IMG/VR virus record: IMGVR_UViG_3300021387_001666
Location: 1-64,000 of that record
Source of the DNA: a virus
Lineage: Duplodnaviria > Caudoviricetes
Length of the DNA stretch: 64,000 nt
Reading direction: 5' to 3' (one strand)
In this document: piece after piece, positions 1,121 through 50,737 of the stretch
How positions within the stretch are numbered: position 1 is the stretch's first letter
Layout of the letters: each line of letters opens with the position of its first letter
Program-made: the position numbers and the translations under genes
Notes under the pieces: model-generated
What the model saw: only the letters and a program-made list of their open reading frames with translations
What the model was told of the DNA's origin: nothing
Databases searched by the model: none

Positions 1121-1147
1121 ACGCCTTTTTTGTTTTATAATTATTAG

Positions 1148-1218
1148 CAGGACTTATAGGAGTCGAACCTATAACCTCAGAGCCAAATTCTGATGTATTA
1201 CCGTTATACTAAAGTCCC
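1148..1218 (-). tRNA. tRNA-Gln(TTG)
   Basis: Acceptor GGGACTT/AAGTCCT, anticodon stem TCAGA/TCTGA with loop ATTTGGC, T arm ATAGG-TTCGACT-CCTAT; no encoded CCA. Confidence 0.9.
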
Positions 1219-1316: not shown

Positions 1317-1820
1317 AAAGTGGCACATGCTGTAGTTAAATGGTTAATTTGATACAGATAGGAAGTCATGAACCACAGCATTTGAGATATGTTGTGCTTT
1401 CAGAGATTCTTGCAAGATATAACATATTACACTTCTAATGAAGCACCCTTTGAGTGATAACCCTTCGTATGTTATAAATCTCTTTCCGCACCCTTCCTTT
1501 ATTCTCACACGGAATAGATACCTCATACCCTTCCTTTGATATGGTAGCATTCTTCATAGAGGTCAGTGCCTAACGGCTCTTCTACTTCTCGCGTACCTAT
1601 TTTTCGCCCTCAAAGCCCTAAATAGCACCTAACAGCACTCCTTGGATTTCTCCGTGGGCTGTTACAGGGGCACTGGTTTGTGCTACATACTGTTGCCCCT
1701 TTTTCTGAGACTAAGAGATTTTGGAAGATACAGACAGTCGCTCACCATAGTAAAGCCCTTAATCATTAGATTCAAATGTCCTATACATCTGCCATGACTG
1801 TCTGTAAACCGTGCCACTTT
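1317..1820 (-). ncRNA. Unassigned ~500-nt large structured RNA upstream of tRNA-Gln
   Basis: Closing 10-bp helix 1811-1820/1317-1326; internal helices 1796-1806/1729-1739, 1713-1721/1476-1484, 1694-1700/1666-1672, 1658-1664/1630-1636, 1371-1381/1327-1337; no credible ORF; promoter and boxA-like element upstream. Confidence 0.7.
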
Positions 1821-1831
1821 ATATGTAAACC

Positions 1832-1867
1832 TGTCAAAGAACTCTCTTGTTTCTTGCCGCAAAGGTA
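1832..1867 (-). promoter_or_regulatory. Bacteroidetes -7 promoter (TACCTTTG, 1860-1867) followed by boxA-like GTTCTTTGACA (1832-1842)
   Basis: Matches TAnnTTTG consensus; boxA-like motif typical of stable-RNA leaders. Confidence 0.7.
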
Positions 1868-2844: not shown

Positions 2845-3190
2845 TTATAGAAGGAGCCACTATATTTATTCTAACTTATTATGGCGTAAAGAGGAAAAAT
2901 GCAGTGTGGCTCCTTCTAATAGATTATACTATTCTGTATTCATTCTTAAGCTTTGGCTTTAGCTGCCATGCTTCTTCCTTCTGAAGGTAAGACAGCTTAG
3001 AGTCGTCTGCTTCATAGTTTATCCAATCAGTCCAGGATACTCCTTCAGAAGTGAATATTTGGTATCTTTTCTGTATCATAGTTTAATCCGGTTAGAATTG
3101 TATCTTCCTCTTCATCGGGAATACCTATGTATGGATAGTCAAGGCAAGGCTGCTTTGCTGCCTGTACCATTCTGTAACCTTGGGATAGTG

Positions 3191-3583
3191 TCATTGTTTC
3201 TTAGCTATAAGTTTTTCTATTTGCTGCATCAAACTAAGAGTTTCTTCCTTGACTCTCTCAATAGGCCACTTTTCTCTTGTGTCACCATAGTGGACAGTAT
3301 CAAAGCCAATGACTCTGAAGTTCTCCAAATCCTTGGGGTCAGGAATGCTTGTAAGAGGTATAAAAGACCTGTTCTCCATGAAATTCCAATTTTCATCAAG
3401 GGTTATACCTCCATGCACAGAAACTAAATAGTCAAGGGATTTATTATCATCCCAACCTGCTCCGCTCATAGAAGATATAGGAAGTTCTTCACTAAAAGCT
3501 ACATAACCATTATACTCCCCACCTCTGTTTTCTGCATGAAATGCGTGGTGGAAGGGGTTCATCATTAAGAATGCTATTACCAT
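3191..3583 (-). CDS. Conserved hypothetical phage protein
   Basis: NGYV...VHGGIT...IGFDTVHYGD motif set seen in a widespread phage family. Confidence 0.75.
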   Translation of the reverse strand: MVIAFLMMNPFHHAFHAENRGGEYNGYVAFSEELPISSMSGAGWDDNKSLDYLVSVHGGITLDENWNFMENRSFIPLTSIPDPKDLENFRVIGFDTVHYGDTREKWPIERVKEETLSLMQQIEKLIAKKQ

Positions 3584-3756
3584 AGTTATTTTTGTTTTTC
3601 AAATTCTTCAAATACCATATCATCAATGACCATATCTACATAGTCATGTGCCAGAGCAACATCTATTGATGTGAGACTTTCACCGTTAGCAGGCTTGTTG
3701 AGAAGCTTTTTGGCTTTAAGCAGGAGGGTTATCTTTTCTTGAGGTGTCATAATTAC

Positions 3757-4107
3757 TTATATCTTTAGGGTTCTATAGTCTAAACCATCAGGAGTATAGA
3801 TAGTGGTATAGTCAGGATTTCCCTCTGGAGAATTTCCTTTCATATACTCATAATCTTTCCATACTATAGGATGAATTTCATCATAGGACTTGTCTTCTCC
3901 TGGATAACAGAAGTTAATCATCACCTCTTTAATCTGCTGTTCTGTTAGATGACCATAGTAAGATATGGCACATTCTCCAAACTGGTCCATATAGAGGCTG
4001 CGGAACTTATTTATCTTCTCTCCCTTCTTATTTTCCCTTAAGGATAAGACATAAGCTGCATTAGCAAGGAAGGGAACCTCAATGTCTTGGATTGTTGTTG
4101 CGTACAT
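3757..4107 (-). CDS. Hypothetical protein
   Basis: 116-aa ATG ORF in operon. Confidence 0.7.
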   Translation of the reverse strand: MYATTIQDIEVPFLANAAYVLSLRENKKGEKINKFRSLYMDQFGECAISYYGHLTEQQIKEVMINFCYPGEDKSYDEIHPIVWKDYEYMKGNSPEGNPDYTTIYTPDGLDYRTLKI

Positions 4108-4137: not shown

Positions 4138-4692
4138 TTATCTGTTATTCTCTATATATGTCATAAAGAGAGAGTCTATCTCACTAGTATCATCAATAGA
4201 TGATTTCTTTGTAGTAAGAATAAAAGATCTGAGAAGTAACATATCCTGATAAGGAGGCTCAAAGGAAGAAACATAGTTGATTGTGGCTTGTAAAGCTTCC
4301 TCTGGTGTAAAGTGGAAGTCATGTACAGCTACAAGGGTTCTGAGCTTCTGAGCTATTATATTAATCGTACCTCTCCATTTATGGGTAGTCCCTGGTTTAT
4401 TGCCCTGAGGATAACAGTTCATCAGTTTTATAGCCAACTCCTCAAAGTCTATACCAGAGTTGATTACTTTCTCATTGGATTCCAGAAGTATTTGAGCAAC
4501 TAAGTCCTTGTTGTTATTGGAAAGGATAATACTCATAGTCTTCATTACATTTCTTTCAGCAAGAGCTTTTTTGATAATAGTATTGTGACAGTCTTCTAAG
4601 TCTATCTCGAAGTAACCTAATAGTAGCAGAAGAAATTCTCCAAGGGAAAGATTGTGTTTCTGAAGTATCTTTGTATTTATTGTTATATTCAT
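4138..4692 (-). CDS. crAss-type conserved protein, possible replication/DNA-binding
   Basis: 184 aa; N-terminal wHTH-like region, FEEL...YP.G.K.GT..WRG segment. Confidence 0.6.
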   Translation of the reverse strand: MNITINTKILQKHNLSLGEFLLLLLGYFEIDLEDCHNTIIKKALAERNVMKTMSIILSNNNKDLVAQILLESNEKVINSGIDFEELAIKLMNCYPQGNKPGTTHKWRGTINIIAQKLRTLVAVHDFHFTPEEALQATINYVSSFEPPYQDMLLLRSFILTTKKSSIDDTSEIDSLFMTYIENNR

Positions 4693-4910
4693 AATCTAAG
4701 AGATTTATATTGTTTATCAGTAAGAATAATCCAGTTACCATTATAATCTTCACATAACCAGTCACCTAAACGAGCGATCTGACCATTGGTAAGATGGTAA
4801 CAATAGGAGTTATTTTCTTTATGGATAGAGGTAATACAAGACAAATTGAATATATCTTCAATGCATTTACCTTCAATGTGTATAGATTGTCTAAGTCTCA
4901 TAGCTAACAA
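4689..4910 (-). CDS. Hypothetical protein
   Basis: Short ORF overlapping neighbours; GDWLCED...W motif. Confidence 0.55.
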   Translation of the reverse strand: MLAMRLRQSIHIEGKCIEDIFNLSCITSIHKENNSYCYHLTNGQIARLGDWLCEDYNGNWIILTDKQYKSLRL

Positions 4911-9177: not shown

Positions 9178-9564
9178 ATGGGAAGAATAGAGGTACATAA
9201 TAGGGAAGTAATGACCAGTGCAGAGTATAGGGCTAATCAAATGGATACATGGCCATCTCCTCTTGAAGAGAGAATGAAGGATTTTCTTGATGAGAATTAT
9301 ATTGAGTATGAGTCTCAGAAAATATTCTATATCTATGCTGATGATGGTTGGATAACAAAATACTACATAGCAGATTTCTATATACCCCATGCTGATATAA
9401 TTATAGAAGTGGATGGTAAATTTCATGATGACCATAAACAGCATGATAAAATGAGAACCAAGGAAATACAAGAACAATATCCTGGGATAGAGGTTCTGAG
9501 ATACAAATGGAAGGATTTATCTGATGCAGATAAAATGGATGATTTGTTATGCAGAATACAATAG
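9178..9564 (+). CDS. DUF559/Vsr-like PD-(D/E)XK endonuclease
   Basis: YIADFY...IIEVDGKFH...D..R...VLRY motif. Confidence 0.85.
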   Translation: MGRIEVHNREVMTSAEYRANQMDTWPSPLEERMKDFLDENYIEYESQKIFYIYADDGWITKYYIADFYIPHADIIIEVDGKFHDDHKQHDKMRTKEIQEQYPGIEVLRYKWKDLSDADKMDDLLCRIQ

Positions 9565-9694: not shown

Positions 9695-10024
9695 ATGAAA
9701 GGGTTAAGACAGTACATTAGAAAACATGGCAAACACTTTACTGAAAAACTTGCAATGTCCATAACCAAAGGTAGATGGAGTTCTTCTGAGATTATGGAGA
9801 AGGCTGAGTCTATGGTGTACTATAATGTCACAGGCTCTACCATTGGTGATATAGTCTTCCTGACCAACTATGCCAAAGATACTGGCAAGGTATTCTACAA
9901 GACCAAATATAACTGTGTTAGATTTGCTTTGTGTATTGTTGGGGAGTATACCATGAGAGATGGTGCTATGTTCAAGAAGTGGGTAGGGGATATAAAGGAT
10001 TTTGACTTTACACCTTATATATAA
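9695..10024 (+). CDS. Hypothetical protein, paralog of 56815-57237
   Basis: YIRKHGKHFTEKLA vs YINNYGCHFSKKLY; own TACCTTTG promoter at 9651-9658. Confidence 0.7.
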   Translation: MKGLRQYIRKHGKHFTEKLAMSITKGRWSSSEIMEKAESMVYYNVTGSTIGDIVFLTNYAKDTGKVFYKTKYNCVRFALCIVGEYTMRDGAMFKKWVGDIKDFDFTPYI

Positions 10025-10106
10025 TAATGGGATGATTTTTAGTTAAATATGAAAAATTGTTCAAGTAGAATTTGGTAATATCAGATATTCTTCGTACCTT
10101 TGCAGG

Positions 10107-10605
10107 CAAACAGGATGCCCATGGTCAGAGGAGACACTACCAAAGACTGGAAGACTGTAAAAGAGTTTTTTGAAATGGCTGAAATATTAGTAACTGTAGG
10201 ATTGCAATCTACCTAGGATAGAGAGGCTCTCGGTCAGATGACACACAACTACCCCCAAGATTCCCACAGGGATGCTGCGAGGTATTTATCCAAGGTCAGA
10301 AAGATTGCCAGTAACAGAAGATGGTTCTGGAAACTATGTACTGTTCAGGGGTTATCGGGGTGAAAATTTCTAAAGGTCTGAAAAGACAAAACCACTGCTA
10401 TAGCAGGAAGGAAGAATAGACTGGTCCAAAAGCTGTATTTCAGTGGAAGTAACACTTCCAACCTTCCCATTAAAGCAGGTTTTTGGGGAGGCCCCCGTAT
10501 GAAAAAGTTCTTCTAGTAGTCTTTTAAGTTTGATAGATTACAGTTACTCTTTAATGCCCGCCTGAAATATGACTTGTTGTAAAATAAGATACTAGCATGG
10601 GAGTT
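10107..10605 (+). ncRNA. ROOL-like large ornate ncRNA
   Basis: ORF-free, between promoter TACCTTTG (10095-10102) and terminator; terminal CCCATG/CATGGG pairing, crossing long-range helices, GNRA-capped hairpins; motifs GGGATGCTGCG, GTAACAGA, TATGTACTG, CCTGAAATATG recall ROOL consensus (from memory, unverified). Confidence 0.75.
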
Positions 10606-10619
10606 AACCCTTGCATTAT

Positions 10620-10665
10620 GAAGTCCCTTCCAAATTTTAGAGCCTCTCGGAAGGGGCTTCTTTTT
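10620..10665 (+). terminator. Intrinsic terminator after ncRNA
   Basis: GAAGTCCCTTCC...GGAAGGGGCTTC-TTTTT. Confidence 0.8.
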
Positions 10666-10738
10666 GTCTTAGCACAATCCTAAGATGCTTTGAATCTATC
10701 CTCCTTATGGTTAATTTTGCAATCAAAAAAGGAAGAGT

Positions 10739-11344
10739 ATGAAAAAGTATTTAATTCTTACTATTATTGTTTTGCTCGCCCTCGTAGGAGTTATGTGGAA
10801 GCAGGTAAAGTATGTCAATCAGAAGTGGGAGACTTCAGAGGCTAATCTGAAAGCCTATGCCAATATTAATAGAGAGGTTGAAGGACAGAATATGGCCTTA
10901 CATCTTACTATAGACCAGCTTGGCTATTTTAAGGATTCTGTACTTCAGGAACTTGACAATACAAGAAGACAGCTGAAGATTAAAGACAAGAACCTCAAAG
11001 CCCTTCAGTCAGTATCTTCCAGCTTTTCCAAATCAGATACCATTATCCTCAAGGACACCTTATTCAAGGAGGTATCATTAAATATTGATACTGTTCTTGG
11101 GGATAAGTGGTATAATGTCAGGCTAGGACTCAAGTATCCTTCCATGATTGCAGTAAAACCATATTTTAAGAGTGAGAAACATATTGTAGTCTCCAGTAAG
11201 AAGGAAACTGTTAATCCTCCTAAGAAGTTCTGGCTGTTCAGACTTTTTCAGCGCAAGCATCTTGTTTTGCATATTGATGTGATTGAGAAGAATCCATACG
11301 TTAAGGACGAGACAAGTAGGTATGTTGAAATTTTAAAACAGTAG
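10739..11344 (+). CDS. Rz/spanin-like membrane-anchored coiled-coil protein
   Basis: N-terminal TM helix, coiled coil, DTIILKDT and KKFWLFRLF segments typical of Bacteroidetes phage spanin-like proteins. Confidence 0.65.
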   Translation: MKKYLILTIIVLLALVGVMWKQVKYVNQKWETSEANLKAYANINREVEGQNMALHLTIDQLGYFKDSVLQELDNTRRQLKIKDKNLKALQSVSSSFSKSDTIILKDTLFKEVSLNIDTVLGDKWYNVRLGLKYPSMIAVKPYFKSEKHIVVSSKKETVNPPKKFWLFRLFQRKHLVLHIDVIEKNPYVKDETSRYVEILKQ

Positions 11345-11603: not shown

Positions 11604-12749
11604 TTATATTTCCAAGTCCCGAATAGCCTTTACCACAGTCTCATCCAATAGTTTTGCATATACCTGTTCTGTAATCTTAGTGGAGGAGTGCCCACATATT
11701 TTAGATACTATTTGCATGGGAACTCCTTCATTTAATAATAAGGTAGCTCCAGTATGTCTTGCCCAGTGAGTAGTTAATGGTTTGTCTATACCAGCAGCCT
11801 GAGCTACAATCTTTAGATACTCATTATACTTTACATTGCTTATGACAGGCAGTTTTCCATCATATTTATGTAATATATCCAATGCAGGAGAAAGTAATGG
11901 TATGGTAAAAGTCATGTTGGTCTTAATTCTGCTTCCTACATATACATTCACACCTTTAACTTCCTGCACCATTCTACTATCAAATTCCAATAAGTCTGAG
12001 TAACTAAGACAGGTGTAGGTTTGGAATACAAAGACATCCCGTACTCTTTCAATACATGCTGTAGGCATTTTAGATACTTTTAACCTACGGAACTCTTCAG
12101 GAGTCAGATATTTACTTATTCCACTGGTATTCTTTCCTCTGTCAATGTTTAGCCATTTATAGGGATTCCTTGTTATATAACCAGCACTCATAGCTTCTGA
12201 GATAAGGGTGTTCATATATTTATGGTAGTTCCCCCACTTACTGCTGACACACATTTTCATGTCAGAAAGGTACTTATCAAAGGCTATAATATTAGTATCA
12301 TTTATATCATTAAAAGACACTATCTTATTCCATTTGTAGAACAGTTTGGTAAAGCAGTCATATCTTTTTATAGTTCCAGGTGCCTTGCCATACTTCCATA
12401 CAGATACTCTCTGCTCCATAAATTCTACAAAAGTTTTAATGGTATCATTTCTTTTATAAAGCTCATCAGATAATTGGTTGATGTCAATACCTTTGTCATT
12501 CATCATATTGTATAGGATAGTTCTTATGTCTACAAGCATTTTGTCTAATGTCTGGCTTATCTGTATGAGATCAGGACAATTAATGATTTTTCCTTTCTTC
12601 CATTGGTAGGCATATAGCATGACTCCAGTACTAATGTACTTCTGTTGATAGTTATAACATACTCTGATTTCAACAGATGCCTTCCTTGTATCTGTAGCTG
12701 TCTTTCTTCTATCAAAGACTAATGTAATGCTTGGCTGTTTGTTATTCAT
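11604..12749 (-). CDS. int: Tyrosine integrase, Bacteroidetes (IntDOT/NBU-like) family
   Basis: N-terminal arm-binding domain (VEIRVCYNYQQKYISTGV), SAM-like core, TCLSYSD (Ser at first catalytic Arg position, as in IntDOT), HWARH, CGH, Tyr in QVYAK. Confidence 0.93.
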   Translation of the reverse strand: MNNKQPSITLVFDRRKTATDTRKASVEIRVCYNYQQKYISTGVMLYAYQWKKGKIINCPDLIQISQTLDKMLVDIRTILYNMMNDKGIDINQLSDELYKRNDTIKTFVEFMEQRVSVWKYGKAPGTIKRYDCFTKLFYKWNKIVSFNDINDTNIIAFDKYLSDMKMCVSSKWGNYHKYMNTLISEAMSAGYITRNPYKWLNIDRGKNTSGISKYLTPEEFRRLKVSKMPTACIERVRDVFVFQTYTCLSYSDLLEFDSRMVQEVKGVNVYVGSRIKTNMTFTIPLLSPALDILHKYDGKLPVISNVKYNEYLKIVAQAAGIDKPLTTHWARHTGATLLLNEGVPMQIVSKICGHSSTKITEQVYAKLLDETVVKAIRDLEI

Positions 12750-12808
12750 TGTTAAAGATTGTTAGTTTGGTGTTAATTGAAAATGTATTTATTATTTTAG
12801 AAACTTTG

Positions 12809-13166
12809 TGTACATAATAATTATGTACAGTGTACAGAATATGTACAGAATAAATATTGTATTCTAATATATAGGTTGGTTTATTATGATGGATAAAAAT
12901 AAAAAAAGAAAAAGATGCTATACACACCTTCTTCTCTGTTTAGTAGGAACATTCGGATTCGAACCGAAGACCTCTTCAATGTGACTGAAGCGCTCTAAAC
13001 CAGCTGAGCTATGCTCCTATCTGTTGCTCCCGTTGCCTTCCTGGTGAACCCGTTGGGATTCAAACCCAGAGGAAGAGAAAGATGTGTATGTGTTTAATAC
13101 CTAAATAGTTAGGTGGGAGGCTTAGTGATTACTGTATTGAGAGTGTACATAATATGTAAAGAATAA
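12809..13166. mobile_element. Putative attP: arm-type repeats flanking a tRNA-3'-end core
   Basis: TGTACA(T/G)AAT repeats at 12809, 12820 (inverted), 12831, 12842, 13144, 13155; core 13042-13068 reads TGGGTTTGAATCCCAACGGGTTCACCA on minus strand. Confidence 0.8.
12944..13018 (-). tRNA. tRNA-Val(CAC)
   Basis: Acceptor AGGAGCA/TGTTCCT, anticodon stem CTTCA/TGAAG with loop GTCACAT, T arm TTCGG-TTCGAAT-CCGAA. Confidence 0.9.
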
Positions 13167-16327: not shown

Positions 16328-19300
16328 ATGGATAATGTAATATGGAATAAATGTCAGACACCATTGGAGAAGCTGTCTGTGGTGGTTGATAGAGATACAC
16401 CAGATGAGAAGACTGTTATGTTTAAGGACAGCCCTGAGGAGGTACAAGAACAGTTCTGGGACTATGTAAATAACGTGCCATTTATTAAGTGGATGGTTTC
16501 TCCTAACAGACCGATGGTATCAGAGTTACCAAGGGATACTTATGGAAGGGCCATTATAGATGTTACAAAGCCTCCTATACTGGATGGTTCAGACTATTTC
16601 AGACAGACAGCTTTGGAATGGGAAGAAAACAATGGTCAGTATACTCATATAAAGCCTAATGCTAATCCCAACAGTGAGTTTGGTAAGTGGATTAGAGAAG
16701 AAAGAAGAAGGGGTTGGGAAGGATATGTTAATCCAGATACAGGCATGTGGGTAACAGGAGACTATTACTGGACACTCAATTATTGTCCTATGCATCTTGT
16801 TGAGAAGAGAGATGATGGCTTGGAGATGCGTACCACCAAGCATCCTAAGTTCTGGGATGGTCAGTTTCTATCTACCCACTATATTCTTCAGGCAAGGCAG
16901 AGAAAGCACCATGCAGCCTATCTTGCTTCGCGTGGTAAGGGTAAAACCACTGTTGGTGGAGGAATGCTTGCAAAGAGATTTATTATTGGTGAATTTGAAA
17001 ACAATAAGACAGATATACAATGTCTGGTTACTGCTGCTGATAAGACAAAATTAATTGGTGTAAATCAGATTCTTTCAGTATTTATTGATAATATAGACTT
17101 TGCAGCCAAGAATACCCAGTTTGCTTCAAGGAGGCTTAAAAGCAGTTTACAGGAACTCACATGGCAGATGGGCTATAAGAAGTCAGGCAGTGATGTAGCA
17201 TATGGTAGTAAGAATTCTGTGCAGGGAATTATTTCAGGTGTCAATCAGGACAAACTGAATGGTTCTCGTGGTGTCTTATATATCATCGAAGAGGCAGGTA
17301 TCTTCAAAGACCTTAATGACCTATATGGACTTATCAGACCTTCTGTAGAGCAAGGTTCTTCTGTGTTTGGTGAGATATTACTTTATGGAACCGCAGGTAA
17401 TGAGCAATCAGATTTTACAGCCTTTGCAGAAATGTTCTATTCTCCTGACGGCTACAACCTTTATGGTCTGGAGAATGTCTTTGATAAAGAAGGTCAAGGT
17501 AGGAAACAATGCTGTTTTTTCTATCCAGTCTACATGAACTATGATGATAGTTGTATAGATGAGAATGGTAATAGTGATATTACCAAGGCATTGTTTATGA
17601 TACTCATGGATAGATATAAGGTGAAGTATGGCAGTACAGACATTAATGCTATTACCAAGCGTATCTCCCAATACCCCATCACTCCACAAGAGGCTATCAT
17701 CAGAAGTCAGGGAAATGTATTCCCTGTTACAGAGTTGAATAACAGATTAAATCAAATAGATAATAACCCAGATGAATATAGTGATGTGTATGTAGGAGAA
17801 TTAGTACAGCAAAAAGATGGTACTGTAGAGTTTCAGCCTACAGGAGATATACCTATCAGGGAGTTTCCTACTAAAGATAATAAGGTGTTGGGAGCCTTGG
17901 AAATCTATGAGATGCCCCAGAAGAATAGTGAAGGTAAAGTACCTTATGACAGGTATGGTTTTGGCTGTTTGAAGGAAGGTGAAAAAATTAATACGAGTGA
18001 GGGTCTGAAGCCTGTAGAAACTATTACCCTTCAGGATAGTTTGATAGATATAGAAGGAAATGAGGTGGGAATACTTAACCTTCAGAAGTATTACAACGAA
18101 AATCCTGTGTATAAAGTAAAACTGTTTAATGTATATAGTCCAACTGTATTTAGTGAAGAACATCCTATATATTGCTGTACTCCAGAAAAGCATTATAGGA
18201 GTATAGACGTATGCAGGAGAGAAGGACTTCCTGAAAGATATTATTCCTATGATTTTGTCTTTAAGAAAGTAAAAGATTTAAAAGCAGGAGATGTGGTCAA
18301 GTCTCCAAATATTTACAGAAGGACTTATCCTTATATGTGCTATTGGGAGGATAACAATAGGATAGATAAGAAAATAGAAAATCCCCTATCTAAAGAAGGG
18401 TTTTGGTGGTTGCTTGGTCTTATTATTGGTGACGGTTGGGTATCTTGTGACGGGAAATCTGTTCACATTGTGTTCAATCAAAAGGAAGAATACTATATAG
18501 AAAAGGCAGAGCAGATAGTAAAAGAAGTGTTTAACCGTAAGTTTACACTGGTTAAAACGAATCCTGGCTGTGTAGAATTTTGCTTTGGTAGTAAAGTTTT
18601 ATGGGACTTTATAGCTAAATATATAGGCAGAGGGGCGGAGAACAAAAGTCTACCTGAGTGGATGAAAAGGATTCCGCATCATTTGAAAAAACAATTAATA
18701 CTTGGCTATCTTGCCTCCGATGGTAGTATCACCAATAATCAGGCAGAATTTGTGAGTGTCAGTCTGAAATTATTGTGTGATATGCAGGATATACTTTTCT
18801 CATTAGGTATTATCGGTGGGGTCAGCCAAATGAAAAAATATGTTCAAAAAAGTATAGCAGGAAATGATGTCGTAGGGGTTAAAGATAAATATCATTTGAG
18901 AATATCCAAAATAGATACAGCAAAAATATGTGAGTGGGATACTAATGATTTGAAGTTAAAACGCTTTAGTTTAAATAGTATAGAGGAAGAGAAAAGAATT
19001 AATAGAGTTTGGTTCAGTGATGATTTGGAATACATATACTTTAAAGTAGCATCTGTTGAAACAGAAGAATATGTTGGATATGTGTACAACTTTGAGTGTT
19101 TCACCCATACTTTTATGTGTAATTGGATACCTACCCATAATTGTGACCCCTTTGATGATGATGAATCAGGCACTATGTCTCTGGGAAGCCTATTTGTAAT
19201 GGATTTCTGGACAGACAGGCTTGTGGCAGAGTTTACAGGAAGACCCTCATTTGCCAATGAGCTCTATGAAAAGGTAAGACTGCTGTGCTTATTTTATAAT

Positions 19301-19789
19301 ATGAAAGGTCTCTATGAAAATAACTTGAAGGGTATCTTCAGTTATTTCAGCATGAGAAACTGTACCTATATGTTGGCAGATACTCCAGAGTATCTAAGAG
19401 ATAAACAGCTTATTACTTCTATTGGTTATGGCAACAAGTCGAAAGGAGTCAGGGCTACTACACCCATCATCAAAGCAGGTTTTAGAATGATAAGAGACTG
19501 GTTGCTGAAACCAGTTATTCACATAGAACATGATGTAGAAGGAAATGAGATTGAGGTTACTGTACCTAACCTATATAATATAAGGTGTAGAGCCTTGATA
19601 AAGGAGTTAATTCAGTGGAACCAATATGGCAACTTTGATAGAGTGATGGCCTTAGTACAATTGATGCTCTATAGGGAAGAAAAGATGATACTTTATCAGG
19701 GAGATGTGAAGAATGCAGAAAGTGGTGCTTCCGGTATGGAGAAGGATGACTACTTTGAGAAGAACTATCCTGGAAAGAAACGTTGGTAA
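16328..19789 (+). CDS. terL: Terminase large subunit (contains intein)
   Basis: Walker A ASRGKGKT, Walker B YIIEEAG, motif III YGTAG, nuclease G|CDPFDDD and C-terminal GNFDRV. Confidence 0.95.
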   Translation: MDNVIWNKCQTPLEKLSVVVDRDTPDEKTVMFKDSPEEVQEQFWDYVNNVPFIKWMVSPNRPMVSELPRDTYGRAIIDVTKPPILDGSDYFRQTALEWEENNGQYTHIKPNANPNSEFGKWIREERRRGWEGYVNPDTGMWVTGDYYWTLNYCPMHLVEKRDDGLEMRTTKHPKFWDGQFLSTHYILQARQRKHHAAYLASRGKGKTTVGGGMLAKRFIIGEFENNKTDIQCLVTAADKTKLIGVNQILSVFIDNIDFAAKNTQFASRRLKSSLQELTWQMGYKKSGSDVAYGSKNSVQGIISGVNQDKLNGSRGVLYIIEEAGIFKDLNDLYGLIRPSVEQGSSVFGEILLYGTAGNEQSDFTAFAEMFYSPDGYNLYGLENVFDKEGQGRKQCCFFYPVYMNYDDSCIDENGNSDITKALFMILMDRYKVKYGSTDINAITKRISQYPITPQEAIIRSQGNVFPVTELNNRLNQIDNNPDEYSDVYVGELVQQKDGTVEFQPTGDIPIREFPTKDNKVLGALEIYEMPQKNSEGKVPYDRYGFGCLKEGEKINTSEGLKPVETITLQDSLIDIEGNEVGILNLQKYYNENPVYKVKLFNVYSPTVFSEEHPIYCCTPEKHYRSIDVCRREGLPERYYSYDFVFKKVKDLKAGDVVKSPNIYRRTYPYMCYWEDNNRIDKKIENPLSKEGFWWLLGLIIGDGWVSCDGKSVHIVFNQKEEYYIEKAEQIVKEVFNRKFTLVKTNPGCVEFCFGSKVLWDFIAKYIGRGAENKSLPEWMKRIPHHLKKQLILGYLASDGSITNNQAEFVSVSLKLLCDMQDILFSLGIIGGVSQMKKYVQKSIAGNDVVGVKDKYHLRISKIDTAKICEWDTNDLKLKRFSLNSIEEEKRINRVWFSDDLEYIYFKVASVETEEYVGYVYNFECFTHTFMCNWIPTHNCDPFDDDESGTMSLGSLFVMDFWTDRLVAEFTGRPSFANELYEKVRLLCLFYNMKGLYENNLKGIFSYFSMRNCTYMLADTPEYLRDKQLITSIGYGNKSKGVRATTPIIKAGFRMIRDWLLKPVIHIEHDVEGNEIEVTVPNLYNIRCRALIKELIQWNQYGNFDRVMALVQLMLYREEKMILYQGDVKNAESGASGMEKDDYFEKNYPGKKRW
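17966..19141 (+). mobile_element. Intein with LAGLIDADG homing endonuclease (residues 547-938, 392 aa)
   Basis: Starts CLKEGEKI, block B SEEHP, LLGLIIGDG and LGYLASDG motifs, ends YNFEC..THN followed by extein Cys. Confidence 0.95.
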
Positions 19790-50168: not shown

Positions 50169-50272
50169 ACTTAATTATATTTGCTGCAAATTTAAGAATT
50201 ATTTCTATATTGACAAAGGATATAAGAAGTTTTCTTATCTAACAGACTTTTTATTATCAAAAAGACACAATT

Positions 50273-50737
50273 AGTCCCTTATGGACTTTCTTGGCTCATC
50301 ATCTTGAAACTTCCACTGCGCGGTCAGTTCAGCTAACTCGTAGCATAATTTAACTGTAATCTCCCTATTACCCCATTTACCCTCTACCTCTTTTCCATCA
50401 TAGCTTGGCGGGGAACAGCTTTATATTCAAGAAATTTGTGGCCTATCGGAGTTTGAGCTATCCTGTTATCTCGGAGATTATGTTTCCTCTTCTGAGGTAT
50501 CTCCTACAATCCGACTTCTGACCCTTACCATCTGCTTCCTGTTTCTCAATGGCGTAGGGTGTACATGAGACTATGACTCTCAAGGGCCTAAATATCTGGT
50601 AATAAAAACCAGAGAAAGAAAAATTGCAACCCTATAGTGACTCACAGGTTGCAATTATCTCCATCTCTGGTATATATTTGAGGAGCTCCCTCCGTCAAAT
50701 CCAACTATGTCCTTGCAATCAGAGTCACTTGATTACT
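50273..50737 (-). ncRNA. Putative structured RNA / leader with kissing-loop pair
   Basis: Promoter TATCTTTG 50742-50749; hairpins 50715-50736 and 50609-50670 with complementary loops; more helices downstream; no ORF. Confidence 0.5.

Follow-up and report, generated by a model that had tools for sequence, protein, structure and literature searches.

A large structured RNA in crAss-like phages, apparently of a new family

Large bacterial and phage RNAs with complex folds are rare (rRNA, group I and II introns, RNase P, tmRNA, OLE, GOLLD, ROOL, HEARO and raiA), and each new large ornate RNA has pointed to unusual biochemistry. The DNA analysed here, hereafter the window, is a stretch of 64,000 nt from a 108-kb IMG/VR virus (record IMGVR_UViG_3300021387_001666), and it raises the question of what occupies the gap at 10025-10738, between a 109-aa ORF (9695-10024) and a 201-aa ORF (10739-11344). 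A preliminary description had suggested a giant noncoding RNA resembling ROOL. We conclude that positions 10108-10666 (plus strand) are very probably the gene for a stand-alone, trans-acting, highly structured ncRNA with a predicted transcript of ~555 nt, and that it belongs to a real, apparently new family of large ornate phage RNA.

The RNA gene and its relatives

No ORF of more than 41 aa is present in the gap, in agreement with the earlier view that it is noncoding, and none of substance appears when TAG is read as Q, TGA as W or TAA as Q, so that a hidden ORF under recoded stops was rejected; the 64-kb window also contains no suppressor tRNA. The promoter and terminator proposed for the RNA are likewise borne out (Table 1). 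The sigma-ABfr consensus of Bacteroidota reportedly comprises a -33 TTTG and a -7 TAnnTTTG separated by a spacer of ~19-21 nt, and the elements at 10071-10102 match this consensus in sequence; transcription of the RNA gene is predicted to start at ~10108-10112. A TAnnTTTG box is found in 20/20 full-length homologues, at 364-403 nt upstream of the conserved loop described below in type A and 286-293 nt upstream in type B. A hairpin with a T-run closes 19 of the 20, with stems that are unrelated between copies, the exception being L053 (A2), which has no clear terminator. The downstream membrane-protein gene has a separate -7 box ahead of it, indicating that the RNA is its own transcription unit of ~555 nt. 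The locus combines the marks of an independent gene for a structured ncRNA, namely a promoter, a terminator, the lack of a conserved ORF and helices with compensatory changes. The folding energy of the single sequence is not unusual (z = -1.2 for the plus strand and -1.1 for the minus strand), and the case for structure must therefore be comparative.

Relatives were sought first via the flanking proteins, which led to related viral contigs. Two of these (L003 and L004) carry a 656-nt copy at 96% nt identity, the neighbouring 201-aa protein being 74-75% identical in amino acids and the immediate neighbours differing. Three others (L005, L021 and L002) have only the promoter and the sequence downstream of the terminator in common with the window, with different cargo in between; a short motif common to L005 and the window sits in a stem that is fully compensatory. 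A scan for the motif CAACC-N6-TTAAAGCAGGTTTT returned 43 metagenome and 14 viral stretches, and nhmmer was used to separate true members from chance matches; many motif matches in viral and metagenome contigs were rejected as chance occurrences within ORFs. A second search with two unrelated conserved motifs, its matches screened with the covariance model R1 (see below), gave three new members, which keep CAACC, AGAC-GG, the architecture, the promoter, the terminator and PK2. The family comprises ~25 distinct relatives in viral and metagenome contigs, which fall into two main types, A and B (Table 1).

In INPHARED (GenBank phage genomes) blastn found no match for the A1, A3, B3 and B7 RNAs or for the 15-kb neighbourhood, and the 16 motif matches in GTDB bacterial genomes look like chance, nhmmer picking up none. 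The RNA gene is also absent from four related, nearly complete crAss-like genomes; together with its absence from GenBank phages, this marks it as a patchy accessory gene. Our literature search turned up no paper that contains the loop motif or describes a structured ncRNA of crAss-like phages. Very probably this RNA is the first to be described from a new family, which has so far been encountered in crAss-like phages only, the majority carrying an integrase.

Table 1. Features of the RNA gene, its predicted fold and its surroundings in window coordinates, with the members of each subtype
Feature	Position	Strand	Details
Bacteroidota-type promoter	10071..10102	+	-33 TTTG 10071-74, 20-nt spacer, -7 TACCTTTG 10095-10102; read from sequence
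RNA gene, ~555 nt, subtype A1	10108..10666	+	No ORF; 96% nt identity to L003/L004; nhmmer and covariance model
P0, closes junction	10162-10172 / 10501-10511	+	10/11 pairs in A1, 11/11 in A2, A-U to U-A swap
PK1 5' strands	10179..10202	+	CTGAAATA 10179-86 with TATTTCAG 10436-43; GGAT 10199-10202 with GTCC 10424-27
P1 domain	10204..10308	+	GCAATCT 10204-10 / AGATTGC 10302-08; ACC 10211-13 / GGT 10294-96
P1 inner stem	10216-22 / 10285-91	+	GGATAGA / TTTATCC
PK2 (A1)	10221..10230	+	GAGAGGCTCT at P1 arm tip; perfect complement of terminator loop AGAGCCTCTC 10639-48
Hairpin H3	10311..10346	+	13 pairs, 5 with both sides changed
Pa, closes conserved core junction (10356..10497)	10356-60 / 10493-97	+	CGGGG / CCCCG
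Pb	10368-71 / 10413-16	+	Inside Pa
Pc, GAAA loop	10376-79 / 10384-87	+	Inside Pa; GTCT-GAAA-AGAC
Pd	10392-98 / 10403-11	+	Inside Pa
Pe	10445-49 / 10455-59	+	Inside Pa
Pf region	10459..10491	+	CAACC, then stem CCTTCCCA 10462-69 / TGGGGAGG 10484-91
Intrinsic terminator	10620..10666	+	Stem 10620-31/10649-60, 17-nt loop with PK2 strand, T-run 10661-66
Separate -7 box for downstream 201-aa membrane-protein gene (10739-11344)	10712..10719	+	TAATTTTG; read from sequence
Convergent tyrosine integrase, 381 aa	11604..12749	-	phrog_1, E = 1.8e-34
Subtype A1			Window, L069, L003, L004
Subtype A2			L053
Subtype A3			L048, L075, L064, L042, L063, L077, L074
Type B			L005, L067, L054, L052, L034, L036, L049/L044, L045, L059, L051

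Predicted fold, pseudoknots and the conserved loop

The RNA is predicted to fold as a multi-helix junction made up of P0, the P1 arm, H3 and Pa, the last enclosing Pb/Pc/Pd, Pe and Pf. In the type A core alignment A7 (window 10200-10500), 56 pairs in 10 helices are 97.9% paired, against 32-47% with slid partners, and 23 pairs are changed on both sides, against 0-3 in the slid controls. Compensatory changes occur in all core helices but the short outer Pd step (helix 4, two invariant C-G pairs). The covariance model R1, built from type A alone (window 10353-10500, a 152-position core), recovers every type B copy at full length (E 1e-7 to 1e-10). Between the types, 93.4% of cells are paired, against 38-54% for slid partners, and two-sided changes are seen in 23 of 33 pairs, against 5-7, several pairs having three or four different Watson-Crick types; MAFFT alignments of A with B run out of register beyond the core, so these cross-type statistics rest on the model-guided alignment A10. 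The full type B structure, pseudoknots included, has 85 pairs of which 89% are paired (36-46% slid) and 29 show two-sided changes (5-10 slid), although this count, like the other covariation counts, is drawn from few clades in which inherited changes are counted repeatedly and so overstates the independent events. The peripheral 5' and 3' arms are unalignable between subtypes, and the outer structure is resolved in part only. The predicted helices are, on this comparative evidence, conserved by compensatory changes across two deeply diverged types.

The alignments also separate the helices that covary from several that had been proposed from the window sequence. Pairing in P1 is complete (100%), and three of its pairs are compensatory (A3 GTATCCT/AGGATAC; type B GATCC/GGATC and GACTC/GAGTC), and the formerly suggested AATCTA/TAGATT pairing competes with its outer stem, which has three compensatory changes. 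The Pf stem covaries completely (CCCA/TGGG, GGAG/CTCC, AGGC/GCCT, CCGA/TCGG) while its loop is kept; the helix CCCCAAGA/TTTTGGGG put forward earlier fails in A3, whereas TGGGGAGG covaries with CCTTCCCA. An end pairing CCCATG/CATGGG is perfect in the window only, three near-identical relatives having CCCAGG, and its 3' arm lies in a local hairpin of its own; an AAAGAC../..GTCTTT pairing is not kept in subtype A2. The two tetraloop hairpins named at the same time do exist, the GAAA hairpin being Pc (10376-87) and the GTAA hairpin lying at ~10573-88 (GTGA in L069). The 3' arm of all type B RNAs (e.g. L005:3790-3815) carries a tandem purine repeat, AGGAAU-N-AGGAAU, which in L034 reads AGGAAAG-AGGAAAG; we found neither a type A counterpart nor a pairing partner for it.

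At least two long-range pseudoknots are predicted, one of them via the terminator loop, and the presence of pseudoknots in the preliminary description is thereby supported. PK1 connects the 5' arm with the junction that lies between AGAC and Pe. It shows compensatory changes in A2 (CTGGATTA/TAATTCAG; AGAT/GTCT), takes the form GCAATAG/CTATTGT in A3 and has equivalents in type B, where 11-bp and 7-bp helices are 87% and 83% paired with compensatory pairs; the cognate arm/junction duplexes are stronger than cross-type ones. The 10/10 inverted repeat of PK2 is present in 4/4 A1 copies, and in type B the long terminator loops show complementarity over 13-18 nt with the segment that follows P1, with which they covary. 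The terminator loop of A3 is short and lacks a complement of this kind. In type B, the 5' strand of Pa covaries both with the core 3' strand and with the terminator loop. A further 10/10 complement noted earlier, AGTAACTGTA 10189-98 with TACAGTTACT 10539-48, is indeed present in the window, but it is A1-specific and not kept in A2.

Pf closes a conserved 14-nt loop, TTAAAGCAGGTTTT (10470-83), whose nearly invariant part, UAAAG[C/A]AGG, stands next to invariant CAACC and AGG, although most members were retrieved through the loop motif and this invariance is partly an ascertainment effect. Among the three members from the search with unrelated motifs, two have the loop UUAAAGAAGGUUUU and one a short loop, UAAAGCAGG, and this variation reduces the conserved element to UAAAG[C/A]AGG rather than the full 14 nt. 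L186, on the reverse strand, is the divergent member with the shortened core loop UAAAGCAGG, and its 3' hairpin, ~60-110 nt beyond the core, contains a second UUAAAGCAGG, with AGCAGG pairing to CCUGCU; the motif can thus base-pair in some contexts. A scan of the phage's own genome for an antisense target of the loop gave no convincing complement, and the same scan of four Bacteroidota genomes, rRNA left out, gave many AT-rich chance matches and again no convincing complement. UUAAAGCAG resembles the loop UUAGAAGCAG of the 23S GTPase centre, which we take to be probably chance.

Genomic setting and the RNA slot

The major capsid protein (MCP) of the virus is 55-58% identical over its full length to those of IAS virus, cr106_1, cr112_1 and PhiCrAssBcn25, which identifies a crAss-like phage (Crassvirales) and supports the earlier proposal of a large ornate ncRNA in a crAss-like phage of a Bacteroidota host. 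TerL matches phrog_6681 and the MCP phrog_11589. The terminase ORF itself (16328-19789) is 1153 aa long, of which residues 63-546 give the terminase match; the remainder matches families of ribonucleotide reductases and endonucleases, pointing to an intein or to a fused insert with a homing endonuclease. The earlier placement of the RNA gene in a late region is not supported: its surroundings are the integrase, tRNA genes and small ORFs, and the terminase follows 5.6 kb downstream.

The integrase is followed on the same strand by tRNA-Val (together 11604-13018), an integration module in a crAss-like phage. In most contexts a convergent tyrosine integrase lies 0.1-3 kb from the RNA gene; it is found downstream of the RNA in L005, L052, L044 and L068, and L165, L149 and L186 have minus-strand ORFs of 384-398 aa downstream of the RNA that match an integrase in size and orientation only. 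The RNA lies directly upstream of a 201/218-aa gene in A1 and B1-B4. A3, B6 and B7 have other genes downstream, or genes on the other strand, A3 contexts consisting of small ORFs on the opposite strand. No consistent protein partner is found among the neighbours, the 109-aa, 201-aa and phrog_1365 genes each being present in some contexts only.

The same slot can hold other cargo. In L021, a related phage of 123 kb, this promoter/terminator slot contains a different RNA-like element of 0.33 kb (4455-4787) and tRNA-Met (4841-4909), and this element is homologous to window 50226-50589 on the minus strand (nhmmer E = 7e-31), so that RNA genes appear to move in and out of the slot. The corresponding region of the window (50226-50612, minus strand) is a second ORF-poor RNA-like element without a match to Rfam or to R1. 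RNA genes of these phages seem to change places between loci. In the close relative L002 the slot (2918-4000) holds ~1 kb of different sequence with short ORFs only. Similarity to the window (10503-10737) is limited to its final ~240 nt, and the cassette appears to have been replaced or to have recombined. Right behind the terminator T-run is an inverted repeat, CTTAG-N7-CTAAG (10668-10684), a candidate operator or boundary of the slot; the window, L003/L004, L005, L021 and L052 all keep it, whether or not their RNA cargo is the same. Of possible relevance to the mobility of the cassette is a 128-aa ORF (9178-9564) that has an HNH/homing-endonuclease signature and precedes the RNA gene by 0.5 kb. 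We are fairly sure that the RNA gene behaves as an exchangeable accessory cassette in an integrase-proximal slot.

Known RNAs, alternative explanations and possible role

With Rfam 15 at the gathering score, the 64-kb window contains three tRNAs only, with no ROOL, GOLLD or other family at the RNA gene; a permissive search of 9900-10800 (E<=10, permissive filters) gave noise only, and nine relatives matched neither ROOL, GOLLD nor any other family. The only Rfam match around window 1317-1867 is tRNA-Gln (1147-1218, minus strand). Membership in ROOL (RF03087) and in GOLLD (RF01998) was rejected on this lack of covariance-model matches in the window and the nine relatives. The label ROOL-like was thus wrong, while the broader kind of molecule that it stood for, in a crAss-like phage, holds.

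The RNA resembles ROOL (Weinberg et al. 2017, PMC5737381) in being a phage-borne molecule of the ~0.55-kb class with multistem junctions, pseudoknots, no ORF, its own transcript (predicted here) and tRNA genes in the wider neighbourhood. Its length of ~555 nt and lack of an ORF are features that are not specific to ROOL, and the structure-aware ROOL model gave no alignment at all to a molecule that has a multi-helix junction and at least two predicted pseudoknots. ROOL is found within tRNA islands and has few highly conserved nucleotides, whereas the RNA described here is integrase-proximal, has a strongly conserved hairpin loop of 9-14 nt and belongs to phages of a different host phylum, the Bacteroidota; the nearest tRNA (Val) is 2.3 kb off, on the other strand and not adjacent, the recurring neighbour being the convergent integrase. 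GOLLD, likewise a large RNA of phages or prophages, combines conservation of its 3' core with greater variation in its 5' part, as here, where the Pa-closed 3' core is conserved and the 5' arm and the P1 insert vary between types. GOLLD loci adjoin or hold tRNAs, and the slot of a related phage has an RNA followed by tRNA-Met, but GOLLD exceeds 800 nt compared with 450-565 nt here, gives no model match, and no member of the family described here has a tRNA inside or directly adjoining it. A divergent ROOL (or GOLLD) member extended to Bacteroidota phages would account for the similar size (mean length of ROOL 581 nt; PMC5737381), for an ornate, pseudoknotted, phage-borne RNA and for the tRNA genes of the neighbourhood and of the related slot; we consider it exceedingly unlikely, given the lack of any match at the gathering score, at E<=10 or in nine other members, and since several of the cited helices are out-competed.

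Other large or phage-encoded RNAs are more distant. The packaging RNA of phi29 (pRNA) is also phage-encoded with its own promoter, and it depends for its function on loop-loop complementarity, with which that of the terminator loop and internal segments here may be compared, but it is ~120-174 nt long, uses 4-nt intermolecular loops, belongs to phi29-like podoviruses and has no sequence or structural similarity to our RNA. OLE and raiA are large ornate ncRNAs that have covariation support and presumably work as assemblies of RNA or RNP, yet they are chromosomal, in Firmicutes and Actinobacteria, and have no model match here.

That the locus is no functional RNA, and instead a gene in decay, a spacer or a site that works as DNA (attP arm, origin or packaging site), is hardly credible: integrase and tRNA genes do lie nearby and the folding-energy z-score is weak, but dozens of compensatory changes keep the helices as the sequence diverges, every full-length member has both a promoter and a terminator, save L053 (no clear terminator), the RNA is more conserved than the neighbouring proteins, and no repeat of it is present elsewhere in the phage genome. 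The RNA could instead act in cis, as a long leader or attenuator for the 201-aa membrane-protein gene or, by convergent transcription, for the integrase. Its position upstream of the 201/218-aa gene and the frequent convergent integrase would suit such a role, and the type B terminator loop, pairing with internal segments, could in principle modulate termination; we rate it very improbable, as the downstream gene has its own -7 box and the differences in downstream genes among members (A3, B6, B7) argue that the RNA is not a leader, and the loop pairing extends into the terminator stem by no more than ~3 nt and is thus not a classical antiterminator. A large ribozyme, self-processing or acting on a host or phage substrate, would fit a large pseudoknotted multi-junction fold with few invariant nucleotides (AGAC-G, CAACC, UAAAGMAGG, AGG), but appears improbable in that no Rfam ribozyme family matches and the conserved nucleotides lie mostly in one hairpin loop, not across junctions; an intron is not in question, the RNA not being inserted in a gene.

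The RNA might also be ROOL- or GOLLD-like in function though unrelated, forming a homo-oligomer (ring or cage) in which the long complements are intermolecular. Two perfect 10-bp long-range complements exist in A1, where by our estimate ~0.15 would be expected by chance, and a type B Pa 5' strand with two covarying partners fits contacts of a domain-swap style; ROOL and GOLLD are themselves phage RNAs, recently shown to form cages made of RNA alone (bioRxiv 10.1101/2024.12.08.627333). Such complementarity fits intramolecular and intermolecular pairing alike, however, the 10-bp AGTAACTGTA pair is not kept in A2, and the A3 terminator loop is short and without a complement, so we regard this alternative as unlikely.

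We favour a stand-alone, trans-acting RNA that works through a binding partner. Host RNA polymerase would transcribe the gene, and the terminator hairpin would dock back on the RNA body to give a compact, nuclease-resistant particle, on which the conserved loop and junction may form a recognition surface for a conserved partner; candidates are a host or phage protein, another RNA or a second copy of the same RNA. Such a surface would imply a decoy, scaffold or assembly role, and the particle could serve as a decoy, scaffold or assembly unit in infection or lysogeny, as has been proposed for ROOL and GOLLD, to which it is compared by analogy only. By that analogy a partner-binding decoy, scaffold or RNP role would be the most likely one.

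Crassvirales are the most abundant gut phage group. On balance we think it probable that the RNA represents a class of large, ornate, pseudoknotted RNA that is restricted to crAss-like phages and has escaped description, that it is carried as an exchangeable cassette in an integrase-proximal slot by a phage with at least one further, unrelated RNA (0.4-0.5 kb), which in a relative occupies this slot, and that the Crassvirales run an unrecognised programme of large RNAs. If true, these RNAs might assemble by themselves into particles or act as decoys for host factors of translation or defence, the UAAAGMAGG loop being the part that is read. There are enough diverged relatives for a covariation-backed secondary structure with pseudoknots, which makes the RNA suited to in-vitro transcription, chemical probing and cryo-EM. 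The integrase link, and the way in which the cassette is exchanged for other RNA genes, point to a trade in RNA cargo among these phages, and this exchange would offer a concrete handle on the role of such RNAs in infection or lysogeny.
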